The notes under the pieces are model-generated. The model made no database searches. It was not told where the DNA came from and was given only the letters and a program-made list of their open reading frames with translations. DNA of 64,000 bases, from assembly GCA_903882905.1 (NCBI GenBank), contig CAIRYW010000019.1:1406-65405 (forward strand), written 5' to 3'. Positions within the stretch are counted from its first letter, which is position 1. The number at the start of each line of letters is the position of its first letter. Source of the stretch: an uncultured bacterium (lineage in GTDB: Bacteria; Patescibacteriota; Minisyncoccia; Phycocordibacterales; CAIRYW01). This document shows positions 791 to 42,576 of the stretch, piece after piece. The translations under genes were made by a program, and so were the position numbers.

Positions 791-1108
791 TACAACTGAA
801 ATAAGAGCGAGGATAATTCCCAAAATACTCAATGTATTTAATTTTTCTCCAAATACGATAACTCCAATAAGAACTGTCAAAAGCAGACTGATGACTGACC
901 ACATTGTTCCTATAATGGATAGCTGATGTTTTTCCATAATTGCAGGCAACCAAGCAATCAAGGAAATTACATCGACTAGTAGTAAATAGAAAAGCAAACT
1001 AAAACTTGGATGCAGTGCAAATTTTTTGGAAAAGAATTCTCCAAAAGCAAAAAAAATTCCTGAGGTTATGAGCCAGACAATTGGTGGAAAGAAAAAAAGA
1101 AAATTCAT
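773..1108 (-). CDS. Small 4-TM EamA/SMR-like membrane protein (ArnE/ArnF-like flippase subunit candidate)
   Basis: 111 aa, four hydrophobic helices, convergent with and overlapping the GT2 gene end. Confidence 0.55.
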   Translation of the reverse strand: MNFLFFFPPIVWLITSGIFFAFGEFFSKKFALHPSFSLLFYLLLVDVISLIAWLPAIMEKHQLSIIGTMWSVISLLLTVLIGVIVFGEKLNTLSILGIILALISVVLLSLA

Positions 1109-1273
1109 CCCGCACTAGAAAATGACCTCGCTTTCAAAAGCGCGGAAATTTTCAAAATTACTTTTAAACTCGACTTGAAATTCCATGTTGTGATCGTTTG
1201 TAAGGTTAAGCTTTTAAGGTCATTTTACAGTGACGGGATTCATCATTGTTAAATTATTATAGCTCAAATAGTA

Positions 1274-2071: not shown

Positions 2072-3101
2072 GATTGTTCAACTTGCTAAATCAAAAGGCA
2101 AAGCAATTTTAAAGACTTATGGAAGTCTTGCTATTGGTCCATATGCTGGAGTTACGATCGGCCAAGCGGCGGTTCTCCCTGGAGAAAAATTGAGCGAGAT
2201 AATAATTGATTTAATGAAAGAAGCAAATGTTAATACAACAAATGCTGGTGTGGCTATTCCACTTCGTTCGAGTTTGGTTTCTTTAATAGAAATGCCGAAC
2301 CTCTCGCAAAGTGAACTTCAAAAAATGGTTCCACTTGAAGCAAGAAAATATATTCCAGTACCAATAAGTGAAGTAACTATGGATTGGTGGGTTATTCCAA
2401 AAGATGAGACAAGAACTTTTTCTTCACCTCAGACTGCACCAATGATTAAGGCAGATAAAGCCGAAGTATTAGTTGTTTCTATTCATAATGAAGTTTTAAA
2501 TAATTACACTTCAATAATAAAAAATGCTGGTCTGTCCACAAGTTTTTTTGAAATTGAAATGTTTGCAACGATCAGATCTCTTATAGAACATGAACTTAGC
2601 CCTGTGATGATTTTTGACATGGGAGCTTCTGCAACAAAACTTTATCTTGTTGAAAGAGGAGTCGTTAAACAGTCACACATCATTAACAGAGGTTCACAAG
2701 ATATCACAATCGCTCTTTCTCAAGGACTTCAAGTTTCAATGGAAAAAGCTGAAAAAATAAAAAGAAGTATCGGGACACTTACAAAAGAAGAAGAGAAAAA
2801 TATTTATGATATTTCTGAGCTCACCATGGATTATATTTTTTCAGAGGCTGGAAGTGTTTTACTTGCTTTTGAGAAAAAAAACCACAAGAGTGTTTCGAGA
2901 GTGTATTTGACCGGAGGAGGAATTCTAATGAAAGGTTTTCTTGATATTGCAAAATCAAAGTTTCAAACAGACGTTGTAATAGGGGATCCTTTTACAAAAA
3001 TAGAGGTTCCAGCTTTTCTTTCGGAGATTCTTAAGGAAAGCGGATTAGATTTCGCTGTAGCTACAGGACTTGCTTTACGTAAGTTACAGGAATTTTTGTA
3101 G
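1986..3101 (+). CDS. pilM: Type IV pilus assembly protein PilM (actin-like ATPase fold)
   Basis: NVIGIDIGSSSIKIVQL start motif. The ORF-track start 1809 overlaps comF on the other strand; in-frame ATG at 1986 chosen. Confidence 0.8.
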   Translation: MNDFIKNLFNFNKTDTNVIGIDIGSSSIKIVQLAKSKGKAILKTYGSLAIGPYAGVTIGQAAVLPGEKLSEIIIDLMKEANVNTTNAGVAIPLRSSLVSLIEMPNLSQSELQKMVPLEARKYIPVPISEVTMDWWVIPKDETRTFSSPQTAPMIKADKAEVLVVSIHNEVLNNYTSIIKNAGLSTSFFEIEMFATIRSLIEHELSPVMIFDMGASATKLYLVERGVVKQSHIINRGSQDITIALSQGLQVSMEKAEKIKRSIGTLTKEEEKNIYDISELTMDYIFSEAGSVLLAFEKKNHKSVSRVYLTGGGILMKGFLDIAKSKFQTDVVIGDPFTKIEVPAFLSEILKESGLDFAVATGLALRKLQEFL

Positions 3102-3105
3102 GAGG

Positions 3106-3396
3106 AACCCAGCACCTTTTTATGCACTATGTGTATGTAATACAAAGCATTATTGATAAAAGTTTATATTTTGGCATTACTAATGATCTAAGCCGTCGCC
3201 TGTTAGAGCATAATGATAAGAAAAATTTTTCCACGAGTTATAAAGGTCCATGGAGGTATGTGTACATTGAAGGATATTTAAGTAGGAAAGATGCTGCTTT
3301 GAGAGAAAAAATTTTTAAGCATTACGGTAATGCACGGACTTATGTTAAACGTCGATTGAAAAATAGTTTAAGTGCATAAGAAGGTGCTGGGAAAAG
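3106..3396 (+). mobile_element. GIY-YIG ORF flanked by perfect 11-bp inverted repeats CCCAGCACCTT / AAGGTGCTGGG (copy A of the CCCAGCAC IR family)
   Basis: IR arms at 3108-3118 and 3381-3391 bracket the 3122-3379 ORF exactly; lies in the pilM-pilN intergenic region. Confidence 0.55.
3122..3379 (+). CDS. GIY-YIG nuclease domain protein (small, 85 aa)
   Basis: YVYVIQS...YFGITNDLSRRLLEHN GIY-YIG motif. Confidence 0.8.
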   Translation: MHYVYVIQSIIDKSLYFGITNDLSRRLLEHNDKKNFSTSYKGPWRYVYIEGYLSRKDAALREKIFKHYGNARTYVKRRLKNSLSA

Positions 3397-3462
3397 ATAT
3401 TAACACCATTCTCACTTTAGGCATTCGCATATTTTTCTAATAAGCGCTAAAATATAAGTAAG

Positions 3463-4185
3463 ATGGAAACAAAGTTTCAAAATACATTTATACCAAAATC
3501 AGCTCTTGATACTCCAAGTATTACTCCTAATAGACAAGCGAACTTTTTGACTTTTGTTTCAATGATTATTTTTCTTTTGAGTTGTGTTTTGGCGGGTGGT
3601 GTATTTCTTTGGGGACAGTATCTTGCAGGTCAGGTGAGTTCACTAAATCAAAGTCTAGAAATAAATAAAAATGCTTTTGAACCAGGCACGATTGAACAAT
3701 ATTCTAGATTAAATAGTCGATTCGATAGTGCAAGAGGTCTTCTATCAAGTCATGTCGCAGCTTCTGCATTCTTTGATTTGCTCAACAAAGATACTTTGAA
3801 AACAATTCAATTTTCAGATTTGAAGTATTCACAAGACGGAAGCGGCCTTATTTCTATCAAAATGTCTGGTAAAGCAAAGTCATATAACTCAGTTGCTTAT
3901 CAAGCCAAAATTTTTTCAAACGAAGTAGCTTTCAAGAACGCAGTATTTTCAAATCTAGATCTTGATCAGTCTGGAAATGTGATTTTTGAATTTGATACAC
4001 AAGTTAATCCAAGTCTCGTAACCTATCAAAATAATATTGCAGCCTATAAAAATCTTTCAAATAATGTACCTCAGACTTTAAGTATTCCAGATCAAAATTC
4101 AGTTTCAAGCAGTAGTAGCGTAGGAGGTTTATCTTTTCCACCAGTAACGTCTACAAGTTCAAATGTTAAATCTATAAAAAAATAA
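3463..4185 (+). CDS. pilN: PilN-like pilus assembly protein (single N-terminal TM)
   Basis: Position after pilM, TM helix then periplasmic domain, Ser-rich tail. Confidence 0.6.
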   Translation: METKFQNTFIPKSALDTPSITPNRQANFLTFVSMIIFLLSCVLAGGVFLWGQYLAGQVSSLNQSLEINKNAFEPGTIEQYSRLNSRFDSARGLLSSHVAASAFFDLLNKDTLKTIQFSDLKYSQDGSGLISIKMSGKAKSYNSVAYQAKIFSNEVAFKNAVFSNLDLDQSGNVIFEFDTQVNPSLVTYQNNIAAYKNLSNNVPQTLSIPDQNSVSSSSSVGGLSFPPVTSTSSNVKSIKK

Positions 4186-8431: not shown

Positions 8432-8464
8432 AAATTAAGGAGCAAAGCGACTATAATTTCAAAA

Positions 8465-8590
8465 CCCAGTACTAACTTTTCGGAACAATTTAAAAAAAAT
8501 GAGAATTAATAAATTACATAACATATTGAAAATAAAAATCAGTCAGACGACTGATTTTTGTGGTAAATTATCAGAAAAGTTAGTGCTGGG
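8465..8590 (+). repeat. CCCAGCAC-core inverted-repeat element, copy B (arms cccagtactaacttttc / gaaaagttagtgctggg, one mismatch)
   Basis: 17-bp arms separated by ~92 bp in the pilT-pilC spacer; the interior contains an ATGAG..TTAAT..AAATATT stretch similar to copies D/E and a small hairpin aatcagtc/gactgatt. Confidence 0.55.
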
Positions 8591-8630
8591 TGGCGATTTT
8601 AATACTCGCTTCACTCGTTAAAAATCAGCC

Positions 8631-9852: not shown

Positions 9853-9907
9853 AAAACCTGCGAGGCTAAGCCTCAAGGATTTTAAGAGGCTTAGCCTCGC
9901 AGGTTTT
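9853..9907 (+). repeat. Perfect 22-bp inverted repeat AAAACCTGCGAGGCTAAGCCTC / GAGGCTTAGCCTCGCAGGTTTT (large hairpin) downstream of pilC
   Basis: Arms 9853-9874 and 9886-9907, 11-nt loop; likely terminator or REP-like structure. Confidence 0.6.
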
Positions 9908-9921
9908 CACTACAAAATTTG

Positions 9922-9961
9922 CCCAGCACCTTCTTTTGCTGCAGCAAAAGAAGGTGCTGGG
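9922..9961 (+). repeat. Perfect 40-nt palindrome CCCAGCACCTTCTTTTGCTG|CAGCAAAAGAAGGTGCTGGG (copy C of the CCCAGCAC family, no spacer)
   Basis: Self-complementary around a CTGCAG centre. Confidence 0.6.
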
Positions 9962-11120: not shown

Positions 11121-11486
11121 ATGAAAAAAGGTTTTACACTTATCGAACTTTTAGTTGTTATTGCAATAATTGGTATTTTGTCTTCTGTGGTTCTTACGTC
11201 TTTGAATGGTGCGAGAGACAAAGCAAAAATTTCTGCTTTCAAGTCTGAACTTTCTTCTCTTCAGTCTGGGTTGGTAAGTATTTGTGATTCTAGAGATATT
11301 GATGTTGCAACTGATACTCCAGCAATTGGTGCCCATAGCGCAGCTGATATTGCGAGTTTTGCACAAAGTTGTGCCGATGACACCGACCCGGTTTATACAT
11401 TTAGTGTTACATTCACTCCAACAAATGGTGCTGCCTGCACTGATGGGACTATCACTGATTCTACTACTACGTACACTGGTTGCTAA
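11121..11486 (+). CDS. Type IV pilin paralog
   Basis: MKKG|FTLIELLVVIAIIG, C-terminal Cys pair. Confidence 0.85.
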   Translation: MKKGFTLIELLVVIAIIGILSSVVLTSLNGARDKAKISAFKSELSSLQSGLVSICDSRDIDVATDTPAIGAHSAADIASFAQSCADDTDPVYTFSVTFTPTNGAACTDGTITDSTTTYTGC

Positions 11487-11536: not shown

Positions 11537-12019
11537 ATGAAAAAAGGTTTTACCCAGCACCAAGTTTTCACAAAACAAGAGTTAATCAAGCGTAAGTTTT
11601 CTATTAGAAAACTTAGTGCTGGGTTTACACTTATCGAACTTTTAGTTGTTATTGCAATAATTGGTATTTTGTCTTCTGTGGTTCTTACGTCTCTAAGTGG
11701 GGCACAAGATAAAGCTAGAAAAGCTGCGGTGATTTCAAGCTTGCAGAGTATTATGCACGAACTTACAATGTGTGATATTGATGGTGGTTTTGGTAGAACG
11801 GAAAACCCTATAGTAGCTGGCGATTATATATGTGTCACTCCAAGTGGAACTGTTAATACTCCTATGACAAATCATACGGCTACTTGGCCAAACATTACAG
11901 GTATTGGTGGTACATATGGGAGTGCTAGGAATGCATTTTCAACTGGAACCTATTCTTATATAGCGACAGTTAATGGTGCAACCATAACTTGTACTTACTC
12001 AACCCAAGTTTGTAGTTAA
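11537..12019 (+). CDS. Type IV pilin paralog with 25-aa insertion in the leader peptide (MKKGFT-[QHQVFTKQELIKRKFSIRKLSAGFT]-LIEL)
   Basis: Start ATG 11537, internal to ORF-track start 11507. The mature part is a paralog of the 10617 pilin; the insertion corresponds to IR element copy G. Confidence 0.75.
   Translation: MKKGFTQHQVFTKQELIKRKFSIRKLSAGFTLIELLVVIAIIGILSSVVLTSLSGAQDKARKAAVISSLQSIMHELTMCDIDGGFGRTENPIVAGDYICVTPSGTVNTPMTNHTATWPNITGIGGTYGSARNAFSTGTYSYIATVNGATITCTYSTQVCS
11546..11628 (+). mobile_element. CCCAGCAC-core IR element copy G (68-bp insert with 7-bp target duplication GGTTT(T)AC) inside the pilin leader-coding sequence
   Basis: Arms acccagcaccaagttt / aaacttagtgctgggt (one mismatch). 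Flanking GGTTTTAC / GGTTTAC duplication reconstitutes the G-F-T codons; total 75 bp, in frame. Confidence 0.6.
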
Positions 12020-12534: not shown

Positions 12535-13356
12535 ATGTTTTATTATCTTTCAGCAGTAATTTTTGTTGTCGGTACGATTATTGGCAGTTTTCTTAATGTC
12601 GTCGCTCTTAGAATCAATACTGGTAAGGGCTTAATGGGTAGGTCTTTTTGCATGTCTTGTGGAAAGACAATAAAATCATATGATCTTTTTCCTATCTTGA
12701 GTTTTCTATCTCTGGGTGGAAAATCCCGTTGTTGCAAGACAAAAATTTCTTGGCAGTATCCTTTGGTTGAATTTATCACAGGACTAATTTTTCTTTCAGT
12801 TTTTTTAAAGTTTTATAGTCTTGCATACGTTCCAGTTTTGGTTCCAACTTTTTGGTATTTAGCTTTTTGTATTTTGATTGTTATCACGATTTATGATGTA
12901 AGACATCAGATTATTCCAGATTTTCTTTCATATACTTTTGCATTTTTATCTGTTTTATATTTTGTTGGAGATAAAAGTCTTACAAGTATTTTTTCTTATC
13001 CAGAAATTTTAAATTTTTTGGCTGGCCCAATTATTTTTGCTGTGTTCTCTTTGGTTTGGTTTGTTTCAAAAGGGAGATGGATTGGTTTTGGAGATGGAAA
13101 ACTAGCCCTTGGAATGGGGTTTGCATTAGGATTTTCAGAAGCTCTTTCGGCAATTGCTTTTGCCTTTTGGATCGGGGCAATCTGGAGTATTTTTATACTA
13201 CTTTTTCAAAAACTTGGTATTGCAAAAAGTAAATTTAATTTTAAGAGCGCTGTGCCGTTTGCACCATTTATGATTGCGGGATTTCTTTTGGCTTTTATTT
13301 TGAGCGCTGATGTTTTTAGTTTAAATATGTTAATTTTTGGCCCAGCACCTTTTTAA
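12535..13356 (+). CDS. pilD: Prepilin peptidase PilD (A24 family, bifunctional)
   Basis: N-terminal Cys tetrad CMSCGK...CCKTK, multiple TM, catalytic Asp region. Confidence 0.85.
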   Translation: MFYYLSAVIFVVGTIIGSFLNVVALRINTGKGLMGRSFCMSCGKTIKSYDLFPILSFLSLGGKSRCCKTKISWQYPLVEFITGLIFLSVFLKFYSLAYVPVLVPTFWYLAFCILIVITIYDVRHQIIPDFLSYTFAFLSVLYFVGDKSLTSIFSYPEILNFLAGPIIFAVFSLVWFVSKGRWIGFGDGKLALGMGFALGFSEALSAIAFAFWIGAIWSIFILLFQKLGIAKSKFNFKSAVPFAPFMIAGFLLAFILSADVFSLNMLIFGPAPF

Positions 13357-13440
13357 TTTGTTAAAATCATGAGTTTAATTAAAATAATAAAAAAATATTT
13401 TTCAAAAAAAAATCTTAATGAAGTACAAAAAGGTGCTGGG
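13341..13440 (+). repeat. CCCAGCAC-core IR element copy D (14-bp arms CCCAGCACCTTTTT / AAAAAGGTGCTGGG) enclosing the start codon and leader of pseudopilin 13369
   Basis: Left arm overlaps the pilD stop; right arm encodes K-G-A-G of the cleavage site. Confidence 0.6.
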
Positions 13441-14076
13441 TTCACCCTCGTCGAAATGATGGTGGTCGTGGCTATTGTAATTGTCATGACTTCTATTTTG
13501 CTTTTGAAACAATCAAAGTTTTCAAGTGATATTTTGGTTACAAACGCTGCTTACGAAGTAGCCCTCTCAATCCGAGAAGCTCAAGTTTATGGTATTAGTT
13601 CCAAACAAACTTCCACAAATTTAAATGTTGGATATGGAATATATTTAGACAATTCATCCACAAATTCTTTTACTATTTATTCTGATGGCGGCTATTCTAG
13701 TAGTAATACATATAATTACACTTTTAATTACGGAGATACTGGCGAATCTTATGTTTCAATAGAAAATCCTCAACTTACACAAGGTCAGACAATAAAAAAA
13801 ATTTGCGTTGCTTCGACAATGAATAATATTAGTTGTTCTGATACTGATTCAACGCTCACAAAACTTAATATAGGTTTTATAAAGCCAAACCCTGAAGCTT
13901 TAATATATAAAAATGGTACTACTGGTACATCAAATAGGCTAAATGAAGCTTTTATAGTCGTTGCATCTGTTCTTGGAGATAAATGTAGAGTCGTCCGAAT
14001 AACTTCTATTGGACAAATATCAGTTGATACTCCTCGTCCTCTAGGTGACGAATGTACCGCTTTACCAACATTATGA
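13369..14076 (+). CDS. Minor pseudopilin with long 24-aa leader (..KKYFSKKNLNEVQKGAG|FTLVEM)
   Basis: Prepilin cleavage motif G|FTLVE after an extended leader; hydrophobic helix. Confidence 0.75.
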   Translation: MSLIKIIKKYFSKKNLNEVQKGAGFTLVEMMVVVAIVIVMTSILLLKQSKFSSDILVTNAAYEVALSIREAQVYGISSKQTSTNLNVGYGIYLDNSSTNSFTIYSDGGYSSSNTYNYTFNYGDTGESYVSIENPQLTQGQTIKKICVASTMNNISCSDTDSTLTKLNIGFIKPNPEALIYKNGTTGTSNRLNEAFIVVASVLGDKCRVVRITSIGQISVDTPRPLGDECTALPTL

Positions 14077-14643: not shown

Positions 14644-14745
14644 AACCCAGCACCTTTATCTTTTCAAAATCATGAACTTCATAAATAAAACAAAAAAATA
14701 TTTTTTAAAGAAAAATTTATACAAAGCACATAAAGGTGCTGGGTT
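14644..14745 (+). repeat. CCCAGCAC-core IR element copy E (16-bp arms AACCCAGCACCTTTAT / ATAAAGGTGCTGGGTT) enclosing the start and leader of pseudopilin 14672
   Basis: Interior is homologous to copy D (aaaatcatga..ttaat..aaaaaaatatttt..); the right arm encodes KGAG. Confidence 0.6.
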
Positions 14746-15292
14746 CACATTAATTGAAACTATGGTTGCAATTACCATCCTTCTTGTAACTATTGTTGGA
14801 CCGATGGAGATCGCTTCGAAAGCTTTATTTTCTGCTTTTTATGCTAGAGATCAAATAACTGCATATTATTTAGCACAAGAGGGTATAGAGTCTTTAAGAA
14901 ACTTCAGAGATGTTTATTATTTAAATGGCTTTACTGGTTGGCCTTCTTTTGTGACAGATTGTTCATATGACGGGATAAGTAAGTATGGGTGTAAAGTTGG
15001 TGCTTCTAGTGGTGCGAATCCTGTTTATAGTGTATTAAAATGTACTGCTAAATGTGATACACCTAGTGATGCCCTATATTACAATAGTGGGAATGGTATA
15101 TATTCTTATATTACTGATTCTGGTAATACCAAATCAAAATATACTAGATTAGTGAAAGTTACCCCAGATGCAACAAATCCTAATGATGCCGCGCTCGTTG
15201 AATCGACAGTTTATTGGACAGGAAGTTATCTATCGAGCGGTACAAAATCTTTTACAATAAAAGAAATGCTTTATAACTGGCAGACGAAATAA
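14672..15292 (+). CDS. Minor pseudopilin with long leader (..KKYFLKKNLYKAHKGAG|FTLIETMV)
   Basis: Prepilin motif; the leader is similar to that of the 13369 gene. Confidence 0.75.
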   Translation: MNFINKTKKYFLKKNLYKAHKGAGFTLIETMVAITILLVTIVGPMEIASKALFSAFYARDQITAYYLAQEGIESLRNFRDVYYLNGFTGWPSFVTDCSYDGISKYGCKVGASSGANPVYSVLKCTAKCDTPSDALYYNSGNGIYSYITDSGNTKSKYTRLVKVTPDATNPNDAALVESTVYWTGSYLSSGTKSFTIKEMLYNWQTK

Positions 15293-18191: not shown

Positions 18192-19603
18192 TGGATTTAA
18201 AAACTCTTACAATAAAACAAGCACGTAAAGATCTAGATGCTAAAAAATACACAGCTGTTGATTTAGTATCCGCATATCTTGAGGCGATCAAAGAAAAAAA
18301 TTCAAATCTAAATGCATATCTAGAAGTTTATAATGACGTCATTGCTCAAGCGGAAGCAGCTGATAAAAGAATCCAGAATGGTGAAAAAGGCGAACTTTTA
18401 GGAATACCTCTTGCGCTCAAAGATAATATTTTAGTTAAAGGCAGAATTGCATCTGCAGCATCAAAAATTTTAGAAAATTATGTCGCAACATATGATGCAA
18501 CCGCTATAGAGAAACTCAAAAAAAGCGGAGCTATTTTCTTAGGAAGATGCAATATGGACGAATTTGCTATGGGAGGTTCAACCGAAAATTCTGCATTTGG
18601 CCCAACAAAAAACCCTTATGATACTTCACGTGTGGCAGGAGGCTCTTCTGGTGGCTCAATAGCTACAGTAGCCTCAGATATAGCTCTTGGCGCCCTAGGA
18701 TCTGATACAGGGGGTTCTATTAGGCAACCAGCAGCCTTTTGTGGGGTAGTAGGAATGAAGCCGTCTTATGGAAGAGTTTCTCGTTATGGTCTTATGGCTA
18801 TGGGATCTTCTTTGGATCAAATTGGACCTGTAGCAAAAACGATTGAAGACGCAGAAATTATTTTTAAAGTTATAGAAGGGAAAGATAATTTTGATTCAAC
18901 TTCGAAAGAGTCTCCAATCGAAAAAAGACAAAATAAAAAAATAATTGGAGTGCCTAGAAAAATTCTAGAAGAGAAGGGAATTTCCGAAGAAGTCTTGAAA
19001 AATTTTAACGAATCAATTGAAAAATTTAAATCTGCTGGATATGAAATCCTAGACATAGAACTTCCAAGAATTTCATATTCTCTTTCAGTTTATTATATTT
19101 TGATGCCGGCAGAAGTTTCCTCAAACATGGCACGTTTTGATGGTGTTAAATTTGGAACTCTTGCTGAGGGAGAAACTTTGACTGAGGATTATATGAAAAC
19201 TAGAGGTACACTTTTGGGTAAAGAAGTCAGAAGGAGAATTTTGCTTGGGACATATGTTTTGTCGGCTGGATATTATGATGCTTATTATGGAAAAGCTACA
19301 AAAGTGAGATCCTTGATAAAAAAAGATTTTGATGAAGCCTTTAAAAAAGTTGATGCAGTCTTGATGCCTGTCTCTCCAACGCCAGCTTTTAAAATTGGTG
19401 AAAAAACATCGGATCCAATAGAAATGTATTTGGCAGACATTTTTACAGTGACGGCAAATTTAATCGGAACGCCAGCTATATCAATTCCTTCTGGGTTTAC
19501 TACGGGCGAATTACCACTACCTCTAGCAATTCAATTAATTGCTCCTTATATGCAAGACGAAATTCTTTTTGAAATTGGAAAAGATTTTGAAAAGTTGAAA
19601 TAG
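18191..19603 (+). CDS. gatA: Glu-tRNA(Gln) amidotransferase subunit A (amidase signature)
   Basis: GGSSGGS amidase signature, Ser-cisSer-Lys triad context. Confidence 0.9.
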   Translation: MDLKTLTIKQARKDLDAKKYTAVDLVSAYLEAIKEKNSNLNAYLEVYNDVIAQAEAADKRIQNGEKGELLGIPLALKDNILVKGRIASAASKILENYVATYDATAIEKLKKSGAIFLGRCNMDEFAMGGSTENSAFGPTKNPYDTSRVAGGSSGGSIATVASDIALGALGSDTGGSIRQPAAFCGVVGMKPSYGRVSRYGLMAMGSSLDQIGPVAKTIEDAEIIFKVIEGKDNFDSTSKESPIEKRQNKKIIGVPRKILEEKGISEEVLKNFNESIEKFKSAGYEILDIELPRISYSLSVYYILMPAEVSSNMARFDGVKFGTLAEGETLTEDYMKTRGTLLGKEVRRRILLGTYVLSAGYYDAYYGKATKVRSLIKKDFDEAFKKVDAVLMPVSPTPAFKIGEKTSDPIEMYLADIFTVTANLIGTPAISIPSGFTTGELPLPLAIQLIAPYMQDEILFEIGKDFEKLK

Positions 19604-27561: not shown

Positions 27562-27665
27562 GCCCAGCACATAGTTTTTCTGATTTCGTGCCATGTTGGT
27601 CTAATTTTGATATAATTAATACACATTGAGTTTTAATTTTCTACCCAGAAAAACTATGTGCTGGG
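27562..27665 (+). repeat. CCCAGCAC-core IR element copy F (21-bp arms GCCCAGCACATAGTTTTTCTG / CAGAAAAACTATGTGCTGGGC)
   Basis: Perfect arms separated by 62 bp between prfB and ftsE. Confidence 0.6.
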
Positions 27666-42330: not shown

Positions 42331-42576
42331 ATGGCTTATTACGTTTATATTCTTGAATGCAAAGATAAAACTTTATATACAGGTTCAACTAATGATCTTC
42401 AAAAAAGAGTTTTTACCCATAATAATTCGAAAACAGGTGCAAAATATACAAAAGCACGCAGGCCAGTCGTATTAAAATATTCTGAAAAATTTAGAACGAA
42501 AAGTAAGGCTATGAAAAGGGAGTGCACAATAAAAAATTTAACAAGAAAAGAAAAATTGAAGCTAATTAAGTTATAA
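42331..42576 (+). CDS. GIY-YIG nuclease domain protein (second copy, 81 aa)
   Basis: YYVYILECKDKTLYTGSTNDLQKRVFTHN; no flanking CCCAGCAC repeats. Confidence 0.8.
   Translation: MAYYVYILECKDKTLYTGSTNDLQKRVFTHNNSKTGAKYTKARRPVVLKYSEKFRTKSKAMKRECTIKNLTRKEKLKLIKL

Follow-up and report, generated by a model that had tools for sequence, protein, structure and literature searches.

A GIY-YIG nuclease gene nested in a split hairpin of a Patescibacteria pilus operon: a probable mobile unit related to Ssn systems

The DNA analysed here (referred to as the window) is a 64,000-nt stretch of contig CAIRYW010000019.1 (positions 1,406 to 65,405; assembly GCA_903882905.1) from an uncultured bacterium of the Patescibacteriota; it is low in GC (~34%) and carries a type IV pilus operon comprising pilM, pilN, pilO, pilB, pilT, pilC, several pilin genes, pilD and minor pilin genes. 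Between the end of pilM at 3101 and the start of pilN at 3463 lies a small open reading frame (ORF) predicted to encode a GIY-YIG nuclease of 85 amino acids, and the operon junctions that follow are just 0-4 nt. An earlier note, made from the letters of the sequence, had described this ORF as lying in the spacer of an otherwise tight operon between perfect 11-bp inverted arms. Both the position and the arms (CCCAGCACCTT, 3108-3118, and AAGGTGCTGGG, 3381-3391) were confirmed, and the full inverted repeat was found to be longer, with 21-nt arms (3108-3128 and 3371-3391) which are 95% complementary, lie 242 nt apart, include the ATG and the TAA of the ORF, and contain a T:G pair as their sole mismatch. 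The unit formed by both arms and the ORF is referred to below as the cassette, and its outer ends, CCCAGCAC and GTGCTGGG, as the foot (see Table 1 for coordinates); it is interpreted here as a probable small mobile unit.

The 9-mer CCCAGCACC (with up to 1 mismatch) occurs 20 times in the window, compared to 3.4 +/- 1.8 times in shuffled sequence, with 0 of 100 shuffles reaching 20. The earlier note had named as its own alternative that GIY-YIG genes elsewhere might never be flanked by inverted repeats and that the repeats might prove to be terminators of pilM plus an unrelated promoter hairpin. A coincidence of this sort, with the left arm a terminator of pilM and the right one a promoter or hairpin, has next to no probability in our judgement: the 40-bp unit at 9922, which is followed by TTTT, could also terminate transcription, but the arms at 3108 and 3391 are not local hairpins and pair mutually across 242 nt, no terminator-like site was found in 2900-3600, and homologous ORFs of other phyla-level lineages lie between the same arms, bracketing being clade-wide. 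The terminator-plus-promoter reading was rejected on the first two of these grounds. Rfam searches, run on the window at the gathering threshold and on 2900-3600 with an E-value threshold, gave no RNA family for the cassette; the 64 kb contain no rRNA gene, and this copy lies outside rRNA. As had also been noted, the other GIY-YIG gene of the window (42331..42576) is divergent, falling in a different protein clade, and has no bracketing repeat, its best flank stem (7) equalling the control median.

Loci of other genomes and contigs are numbered with L below. A scan of one genome per species gave 183 relative-encoding loci, the best 80 of which were kept, most of them from the Candidate Phyla Radiation (CPR)/Patescibacteria. 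Relatives whose PilN is 75-77% identical to that of the window keep the pilus operon in the same order on their contigs, and the earlier note's suggestion of looking for pilM-pilN loci that lack the cassette was borne out in four of them (L088, L091, L093 and L094), where the spacer is ~86-106 nt and contains no ORF. When these spacers were aligned, the pilM stop in the relatives was found to run straight into a conserved AAAGATAT(T/C)AACAC, which in the window starts directly after ...GTGCTGGG. The cassette is thus an insertion. No pairs of CCCAGCAC...GTGCTGGG were found in L088, L089, L091, L094 or L095 (10-21 kb examined per contig), while L093 carries a 40-bp unit after pilC (14848-14887) which is orthologous to window 9922-9961. 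The pilT-pilC spacer is a second occupied site: L093 holds there (13300-13620) a complete cassette whose GIY-YIG protein (MYYIYVL...) falls in another clade (arms CCCTGTTAAAT/ATTTAACAGGG), L088 and L091 hold its decayed remnants, including the start ATGTATTATATA, and in the window (8432-8630) an ORF-less unit of 126 bp occupies the position aligned with both the L093 cassette and these remnants. In L091 a Y1_Tnp gene (IS200/IS605- or RAYT-type) was observed between pilin genes of the relative's cluster (18450-19118), and more than one type of hairpin-dependent element seems to gather in the pilin cluster.

The same foot, CCCAGCAC...GTGCTGGG, was found to bracket the ORFs of proteins that share 62-65% identity with that of the window. 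Cassettes were placed with Rfam within the 16S rRNA genes of L001, L003, L012, L014, L024 and L032; the L010 cassette overlaps the 5' end of the 16S match, and those of L004 and L005 lie just upstream of the 16S 5' end. The 16S genes were aligned with each other, each serving as an empty site for the rest, which gave insertion boundaries (slashes) of GATGGT/CCCAGCAC...GTGCTGGG/TAAAG at site A in the 5' domain and, at site B, of GGAAAAA/CCCAGC...GCTGGG/TGATGG in L001 versus GGAAA-TTAT-TGACG in L014. The 16S cassettes lie at helix tips, are not group I or group II introns, and are always co-oriented with the rRNA. Outside rRNA, a 284-bp unit with 17-nt window-like arms was found after pheS and between lepB and hisS (L008, Candidatus Wolfebacteria, and L009), and in all at least 6 unrelated sites are occupied by the ORF with a CCCAGCAC-type repeat. 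At site A of L001 (4820-4835), a 10-nt CCCTCACGGG mini-hairpin stands where five other 16S genes have a 304-307-bp cassette; it has a foot similar to the CCCCTCAC type, which belongs to another nuclease clade, and may represent either a remnant or the natural tip of a helix. CCCAG(C/T)AC hairpins of 37-42 bp were also observed inside group I introns of rRNA genes (L024, 2189-2228 and 2257-2298; L211, 5156-5192), the same 16S gene of L024 holding a full GIY-YIG cassette at another site.

A repeat bracketing the ORF and scoring >=14 was found at 40 of the 82 scorable homolog loci, whereas shifted controls gave 2 of 298 and swapped controls 0 of 82. The outer ends of these repeats are C-rich variants (CCCAGCAC, CCCCGCTC, ATCCCGTTAGAGAC, CCCCTCAC, CCGCACAC and CCCCCACCAC), each of which maps to one protein clade; in the clade of the window protein, 13 of 13 members have a (C/T)CCAGCAC foot, and Bacteroidota-type and other non-CPR clades have no bracketing repeat. 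The ORF and the repeat type are inherited together through many unrelated insertion sites. The similarity of two copies in one metagenome-assembled genome (L066 and L073) is confined to the stretch from AATTCATCCGCACAC... to ...GTGTGCGGATAAAT, with unrelated flanks and no duplication, and the limits of the mobile unit are exactly the outer ends of the repeat. The proportions of synonymous (pS) and nonsynonymous (pN) differences between these two ORFs are 0.55 and 0.06, respectively, yet their 26-nt arms are identical. Neither the 16S sites nor the pilM-pilN site nor the L066/L073 pair showed a fixed target-site duplication; the only recurrent one is TTTA, seen where the insertion is in a pilin leader.

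In addition to the cassette, the window contains ORF-less copies of the repeat. Each exact CCCAGCAC of the + strand has a GTGCTGGG after it within 40-284 nt, with complementarity continuing inward, and 7 paired units were obtained in the 64 kb, compared to ~3 foot matches expected by chance, which indicates that the cognate repeat is dispersed in the window (Table 1).

Table 1. Position of the cassette, its parts and the ORF-less units in the window.
Feature	Position	Strand	Remark
Cassette as a whole (284 bp; both arms and the GIY-YIG ORF)	3108..3391	+	Without counterpart in 4 syntenic spacers
Left arm, CCCAGCACCTTTTTATGCACT	3108..3128	+	Begins with the nearly invariant 8-nt foot; extends over the ATG at 3122
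GIY-YIG nuclease gene, single domain, 85 aa, Ssn-like / prokaryotic Slx1-like	3122..3379	+	Pfam and hhalign
Right arm, AGTGCATAAGAAGGTGCTGGG	3371..3391	+	Overlaps the TAA stop, 3377-3379
ORF-less unit, 126 bp, foot CCCAGTAC...GTGCTGGG (CCCAGTAC variant), pilT-pilC spacer	8465..8590	+	Family membership uncertain
ORF-less 40-bp perfect hairpin after pilC, then TTTT	9922..9961	+	Orthologous unit in L093
ORF-less unit, 71 bp (75 bp with TTTA duplication), in frame in prepilin leader MKKGF[TQH...SAGF]TLIEL	11553..11623	+	Paralog and orthologs without insert
ORF-less unit, 100 bp, spans pilD stop and minor pilin start codon and leader; right foot is G-A-G before F(+1)	13341..13440	+	
ORF-less unit, 98 bp, carries start codon and leader of next minor pilin; right foot is G-A-G	14646..14743	+	
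ORF-less unit, 103 bp, 20-nt perfect arms, prfB-ftsE spacer	27563..27665	+	

The six ORF-less copies of the window are probably non-autonomous or decayed relatives of the cassette. Only 4 of the 6 share CCCAGCACCTT with it, their interiors are unrelated except for 13341 versus 14646, and little is shared past the 8-9-nt foot; a general origin by simple recent deletion from 3108-3391 therefore finds no support. Directly upstream of the 40-bp hairpin after pilC, a perfect palindrome with 22-nt arms (AAAACCTGCGAGGCTAAGCCTC / GAGGCTTAGCCTCGCAGGTTTT, 9853-9907) was observed, which places two strong hairpins in tandem at an operon break. Metagenomes were scanned with the pattern CCCAGCACC-N10-40-GGTGCTGGG, and only hairpins with a stem of >=13 were used. 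Low- and mid-GC contigs gave perfect hairpins with stems of 13-19 nt, and ORF-less units with the same 8-nt foot are widespread; matches on high-GC contigs were discarded as chance, their pairing extending just over the 9-10 specified bases. Among all units, 19 of 136 ends have TTTA immediately 5' of the foot.

The numbers of these ORF-less hairpins bear on a reading in which two separate parasites are involved, the CCCAGCAC hairpins being an independent family resembling repetitive extragenic palindromic (REP) sequences or miniature inverted-repeat transposable elements (MITEs), and the GIY-YIG gene a free-standing homing gene that secondarily invades hairpin loops by cutting ORF-less hairpins and being copied in by repair, with the arms used as homology. 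In keeping with this, ORF-less hairpins are more numerous and widespread than ORF-bearing units, both share kinds of site (the pilin G/F junction, and the pilT-pilC spacer in the window versus L093), and the ORF is always in the loop, near the arms. We nevertheless regard it as unlikely, because each protein clade has its own foot, which argues for long co-evolution of protein and repeat, the protein lacks a DNA-binding domain like that of known homing enzymes, arms of 11-26 nt offer short homology for repair, and the Ssn relatives described below cut single-stranded DNA only.

The stem was compared among 17 units of the CCCAGCAC type over the outer 20 nt of each arm. Paired cells made up 94.7%, compared to 75.7% in shuffles, and in slid registers the value always dropped to 42-54%; 12 of the 20 stem pairs had changed on both sides (covariation). 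The outer 8 pairs are nearly invariant, with no variation at positions 2-5, 7 and 8 and one deviating sequence each at positions 1 and 6, and this conservation of the foot sequence itself suggests that a protein recognises it. The inner stems of units from one genome vary, each still being self-complementary, so that the inner stem serves pairing and not sequence. Among all bracketed loci, 25 internal mismatches were of the G:T type and 4 of the A:C type (binomial P 1e-4), or ~14 and 4 with shared ancestry counted once, as several of the G:T mismatches are inherited and not independent; in 22 of the mismatches the T is on the left arm and the G on the right. Mismatches of the wobble type on the sense strand imply that the fold is selected on that strand as a single strand, whether as RNA or as single-stranded DNA. 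In the predicted RNA fold of 3100-3400 the closing stem was present in both the minimum-free-energy and the centroid structure (z -3.6).

These data also bear on whether the cassette is an RNA-level element like the intervening sequences of rRNA, in which the stem would serve for RNase III cutting or for folding the insert away, and the nuclease would be a passenger. The many homologous cassettes at 16S helix tips, co-oriented with the rRNA, would fit such an element, as would the wobble-type mismatches on the sense strand, the closing stem in the predicted fold, and the orientation of the ORF, which agrees with both neighbouring genes in 10 loci and is opposed in 1. It leaves unexplained, however, the nearly invariant 8-nt foot, the clade-specific feet and the strong purifying selection on the nuclease, and there were no Rfam family matches; we consider it improbable. 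Folding of the RNA probably contributes to the tolerance of the insert without being its whole function.

The predicted protein matched the Pfam family GIY-YIG (PF01541; E 1.1e-13, residues 1-72 covered), with Y5, Y16, R26, H30, E62 and N70 invariant across close homologs, and consists of the nuclease domain alone, with nothing beyond it in 85 aa. It is under purifying selection (pN/pS 0.07-0.28 in homolog pairs). With a cut-off of E <= 1e-3 a profile search retrieved 12,738 cluster representatives, and with E <= 1e-10 it retrieved 2,066. NCBIfam gave only a sub-threshold match to a group I intron endonuclease (TIGR01453, 17 bits compared to a cut-off of 56), PHROGs gave no match for the ORF, and a scan of viral contigs gave just two partial matches, hence there is no sign of a phage vector. 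A homing endonuclease of the I-TevI or Seg type was ruled out by the bare domain, which has no DNA-binding domain, and by the lack of an intron or RNA family and of a PHROG match. The homing type which the earlier note had assumed was thus not upheld, the protein being nearest to UPF0213/SLX1 structures and to proteins of the Ssn type.

Ssn proteins are single-domain GIY-YIG proteins of ~94 aa which bind a hairpin repeat, NTS/SRM, and cut single-stranded DNA beside the hairpin, on one strand only, being inactive on duplex DNA or RNA; 42% of ssn genes have the repeat on both flanks, and the gene layout was likened by the authors to insertion sequences and REP/RAYT, with mobility raised as a hypothesis only (Chenal et al. 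2025, PMC11893778). The present link to Ssn is based on two hairpin-flanked, plasmid-borne homologs (Azospirillum and Sinorhizobium): with hhalign, the profile of the window clade matched these two alphaproteobacterial, NTS-like-flanked proteins at 97.8% (E 1e-12, 37% identity), and each of their genes has a complete NTS-like hairpin on either flank, e.g. CGTCATCCCCGCGAAGGCGGGGATCCAG, in the canonical layout. The cassette resembles Ssn (cd10448) in its single-domain protein of ~90 aa (here 85 aa), in a hairpin-forming repeat which both brackets the gene and is dispersed in many ORF-less copies, in the co-variation of repeat and protein, and in a C-rich foot, which reads ...TCATTCCCGCG in NTS, ...TTTA-CCCAGCAC here, and ATCCCG... 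or TCATCCGCACAC in other CPR clades. The foot itself, often preceded by TTTA, is unlike the SRM/NTS consensus (ATTCCC N8 GGGAAT with an upstream CGTC), only C-richness being alike, whereas CPR clades with ATCCCG... and TCATCCGC... feet come closer to that consensus than does CCCAGCAC. The CPR cassettes also differ in being inserted in rRNA genes and prepilin leaders, including in-frame fusions, and in that mobility is documented here by empty sites and was only hypothesised for Ssn (PMC11893778). A single-copy ORF-less unit with another foot, ATCCCGCACTAGAAAATGACC ... GGTCATTTTACAGTGACGGGAT, was observed at window 1107-1239 between two - strand genes; with the TTC that stands before it, its foot reads TTCATCCCGC, similar to the NTS/SRM motif TCATTCCCGCG.

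A further kind of insertion site is the prepilin leader, which the earlier note had proposed as a possible target. In the window, the unit at 11553 interrupts a pilin gene as ATGAAAAAAGGTTTTA/CCCAGCACC...AGTGCTGGG/TTTACACTT, where the uninterrupted paralog at 11121 and the orthologs of relatives read ATGAAAAAAGGTTTTACA...; insert and TTTA duplication together are 75 nt, in frame, and place S-A-G before Phe(+1). For the minor pilin at 14672, the orthologs read KKGF[NQHLLFIKKISAGF]TLIE in P0048 versus KKGFTLIE in P0047, and KIGF[TQHLLFLKKKEGAGF]TLIE in P0049 (L093). In metagenomes, six independent loci were found as ...TTTA/unit/TTTAC..., and at four pilin loci (three of these six, and L168 with TTCA as left flank) a pilin N-terminus follows, namely FTLLEV, FSFIEV, FTLIEV or FTFVEV. 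Full cassettes use the same junction: in L206 (10168-10560, - strand) a left arm, a nuclease ORF and a right arm stand, in that order, between the pilin start ATGAAGGGATTTA and TTTACTCTTATTGAG, and in L060 (1486-2100; ORF 1501-2100) the nuclease ORF at G/F lacks a stop codon and continues in frame as the pilin (...KKRIGLSGAG/FTLVELVIV). The link to pilin leaders therefore held, GGN TTT A/C at the prepilin G/F being a recurrent insertion site for ORF-less units and full cassettes alike.

Fusions of nuclease and prepilin, seen among proteins P0172-P0311, numbered 33 of the 150 best cluster representatives, with G-A-G or S-A-G/F at the junction in 29 of the 33 and A-G before the cleavage site in 32. 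The fused nuclease would accordingly be made as a prepilin leader of ~90-130 aa. Processing of type IV prepilins by the prepilin peptidase requires Gly(-1); since GGTGCTGGG translates to G-A-G, the right end of the element rebuilds this residue, and by analogy cleavage would be expected at the rebuilt G-A-G/F site. In L206 (10205-10290, - strand), a 42-nt segment, AAAAAAAGTGATACAAAGGGTTTA[T/C]CCAGCACCACTTTTCAG, was observed to be tandemly duplicated downstream of the nuclease ORF, which fits repeated insertion at a regenerated GGGTTTAC site and has resulted in a new in-frame start and a long leader ending in SGAG/FTLIEV.

The position of 6 of the 7 window units within 12 kb of the pilus/pilin cluster would also suit a domesticated host system, as proposed for SsnA/NTS of Neisseria, in which the nuclease would cut incoming single-stranded DNA at hairpins around pilin genes and so control recombination after transformation. 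CPR bacteria are considered to depend on pilus-mediated DNA uptake, which agrees with such a role. In the published case NTS repeats cluster around important genes, often those of membrane proteins, and SsnA modulates transformation (PMC11893778). Close relatives with the same operon have no units, however, the cassette is found elsewhere in rRNA genes and unrelated spacers, and two diverged copies occur in one genome; a host system as the explanation appears quite doubtful to us. It is compatible with the cassette being a mobile element, and the patterns that count against it are those of a mobile element.

Among other known systems, REP/RAYT (REPtrons, REPINs) and IS200/IS605 likewise have a nuclease gene between inverted copies of a dispersed short palindromic repeat, act on single-stranded hairpins and leave no regular target duplication; theirs is an HUH/Y1 transposase, whereas the only ORF of the cassette encodes a GIY-YIG protein, which cannot rejoin strands alone. 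Compared with classical insertion sequences and MITEs, the cassette has inverted ends, there is no DDE transposase, and TTTA is duplicated at pilin-leader sites and not at rRNA or spacer sites. GIY-YIG proteins have been reported in CPR rRNA insertions that are neither group I nor group II introns and seemingly lie outside homing spread (Tsurumaki et al. 2024, PMC11270868). The homologs of the cassette are exactly such non-intron 16S insertions at helix tips; the text of that paper contains neither 'inverted repeat' nor 'palindrom' and no copies outside rRNA (PMC11270868). The window copy lies in a protein-coding operon. The same location separates it from rRNA intervening sequences, though homologous cassettes do lie in rRNA genes. 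Rickettsia palindromic elements and in-frame MITEs are also short palindromic units tolerated and translated in coding sequence (as are 11553-11623 and the inserts of P0048 and P0049); what differs here is a specific site, the prepilin leader, a peptide predicted to be removable by prepilin peptidase, and an associated nuclease gene. Slx1-like/UPF0213 proteins (1zg2, 1ywl) share the minimal GIY-YIG domain without extra domains and are the best structure matches, but are regarded as repair enzymes; a 2006 survey grouped proteins of the 1zg2/1ywl type as prokaryotic Slx1-like minimal domains and describes no repeat association. Nothing closer was found in the literature on GIY-YIG with MITE, terminal repeats, pilin or UPF0213.

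Small homologous GIY-YIG genes were also observed inside or directly after tRNA genes (L064, L078, L079, L068, L071 and L057; around 1400-1900 or at the locus start) in non-CPR hosts, namely Deltaproteobacteria, Gammaproteobacteria, Sphingomonadales and Bacteroidota. At these loci the ORF is followed by a second copy of part of the tRNA 3' half or of the tRNA terminator; they lack a CCC-type bracketing repeat and represent a different harbour.

On balance, the cassette is probably, though not securely, a small mobile unit made up of a single-domain GIY-YIG gene and its cognate hairpin, a relative of Ssn/SRM in which the gene lies inside the loop of one hairpin. Several points weigh against this. 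Identity to Ssn-type proteins is just ~37% over 67 residues, and the matches among solved structures are the UPF0213 proteins 1zg2 (E 1e-7) and 1ywl (5e-5), followed by SLX1. The canonical NTS-ssnA-NTS layout has a complete hairpin on each flank, whereas the window gene sits inside one split hairpin with one arm per side. Past the foot, the ORF-less copies of the window are unlike one another and unlike the cassette, which leaves direct mobilisation by the 3122 gene conjectural; ORF-bearing copies show no consistent target-site duplication, a GIY-YIG nuclease cannot rejoin DNA, and the shared ancestry of several wobble pairs reduces the weight of the strand asymmetry. Of the earlier note's proposal that the gene is the autonomous partner which mobilises the ORF-less copies, the first part stands, in that repeat and ORF form one insertable unit whose site is empty in 4 relatives, while the evidence for mobilisation is circumstantial. 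Its view of an autonomous member was largely right in spirit, with the enzyme, judged by its homologs, apparently of the Ssn kind and not of the homing kind.

The mode of movement we infer mainly from the Ssn precedent. By analogy with its relatives the window clade is predicted to have nuclease activity, and the 85-aa protein would bind its own hairpin foot in single-stranded DNA, at replication or during uptake of transforming DNA (from PMC11893778), and would cut just outside the foot, probably on the TTTA side, TTTA being a possible counterpart of the conserved upstream bases of NTS that direct cutting. Host repair, recombination or replication might then copy, move or delete the unit, leaving ORF-less hairpins behind; as a GIY-YIG enzyme cannot ligate, this copying step is the weakest part of the model. 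The element would persist only where it is harmless, that is in operon spacers, at rRNA helix tips, where the stem would close the insert off, and in the prepilin leader, where the right end GGT GCT GGG/TTT would rebuild the Gly/Phe peptidase site and the insert would be removed with the leader. Inserts would thus be tolerated in rRNA because of the closing stem, and in pilin leaders because the right end reads G-A-G.

The general principle was already published in 2025 with Ssn; new are the split-hairpin nesting, the documented mobility, the rRNA and intron sites, and the prepilin-leader harbour with its widespread in-frame fusions. We propose tentatively, as a possibility that falls somewhat short of an even case, that hairpin-nested Ssn-like cassettes form an undescribed class of autonomous mobile element in the CPR and neighbouring phyla, with a bare 85-aa structure- and sequence-specific nuclease as their only protein, which survives in three self-erasing harbours (rRNA helix tips, operon spacers, and the prepilin leader, where a Gly-Ala-Gly right end rebuilds the peptidase site), and whose nuclease could be made as a pilin leader and released by prepilin peptidase. 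For Ssn systems, first described in 2025, the window and its relatives provide a model of mobility, with empty sites, sharply bounded copies in the same genome and many insertion sites. The cassette would also explain the GIY-YIG-encoding, non-intron rRNA insertions of CPR bacteria. Each clade combines a tiny nuclease with a different foot, which makes these proteins candidate single-strand-specific cutters with new specificities, and removal of a prepilin-leader insert by the leader peptidase would be a protein-level counterpart of intron splicing.

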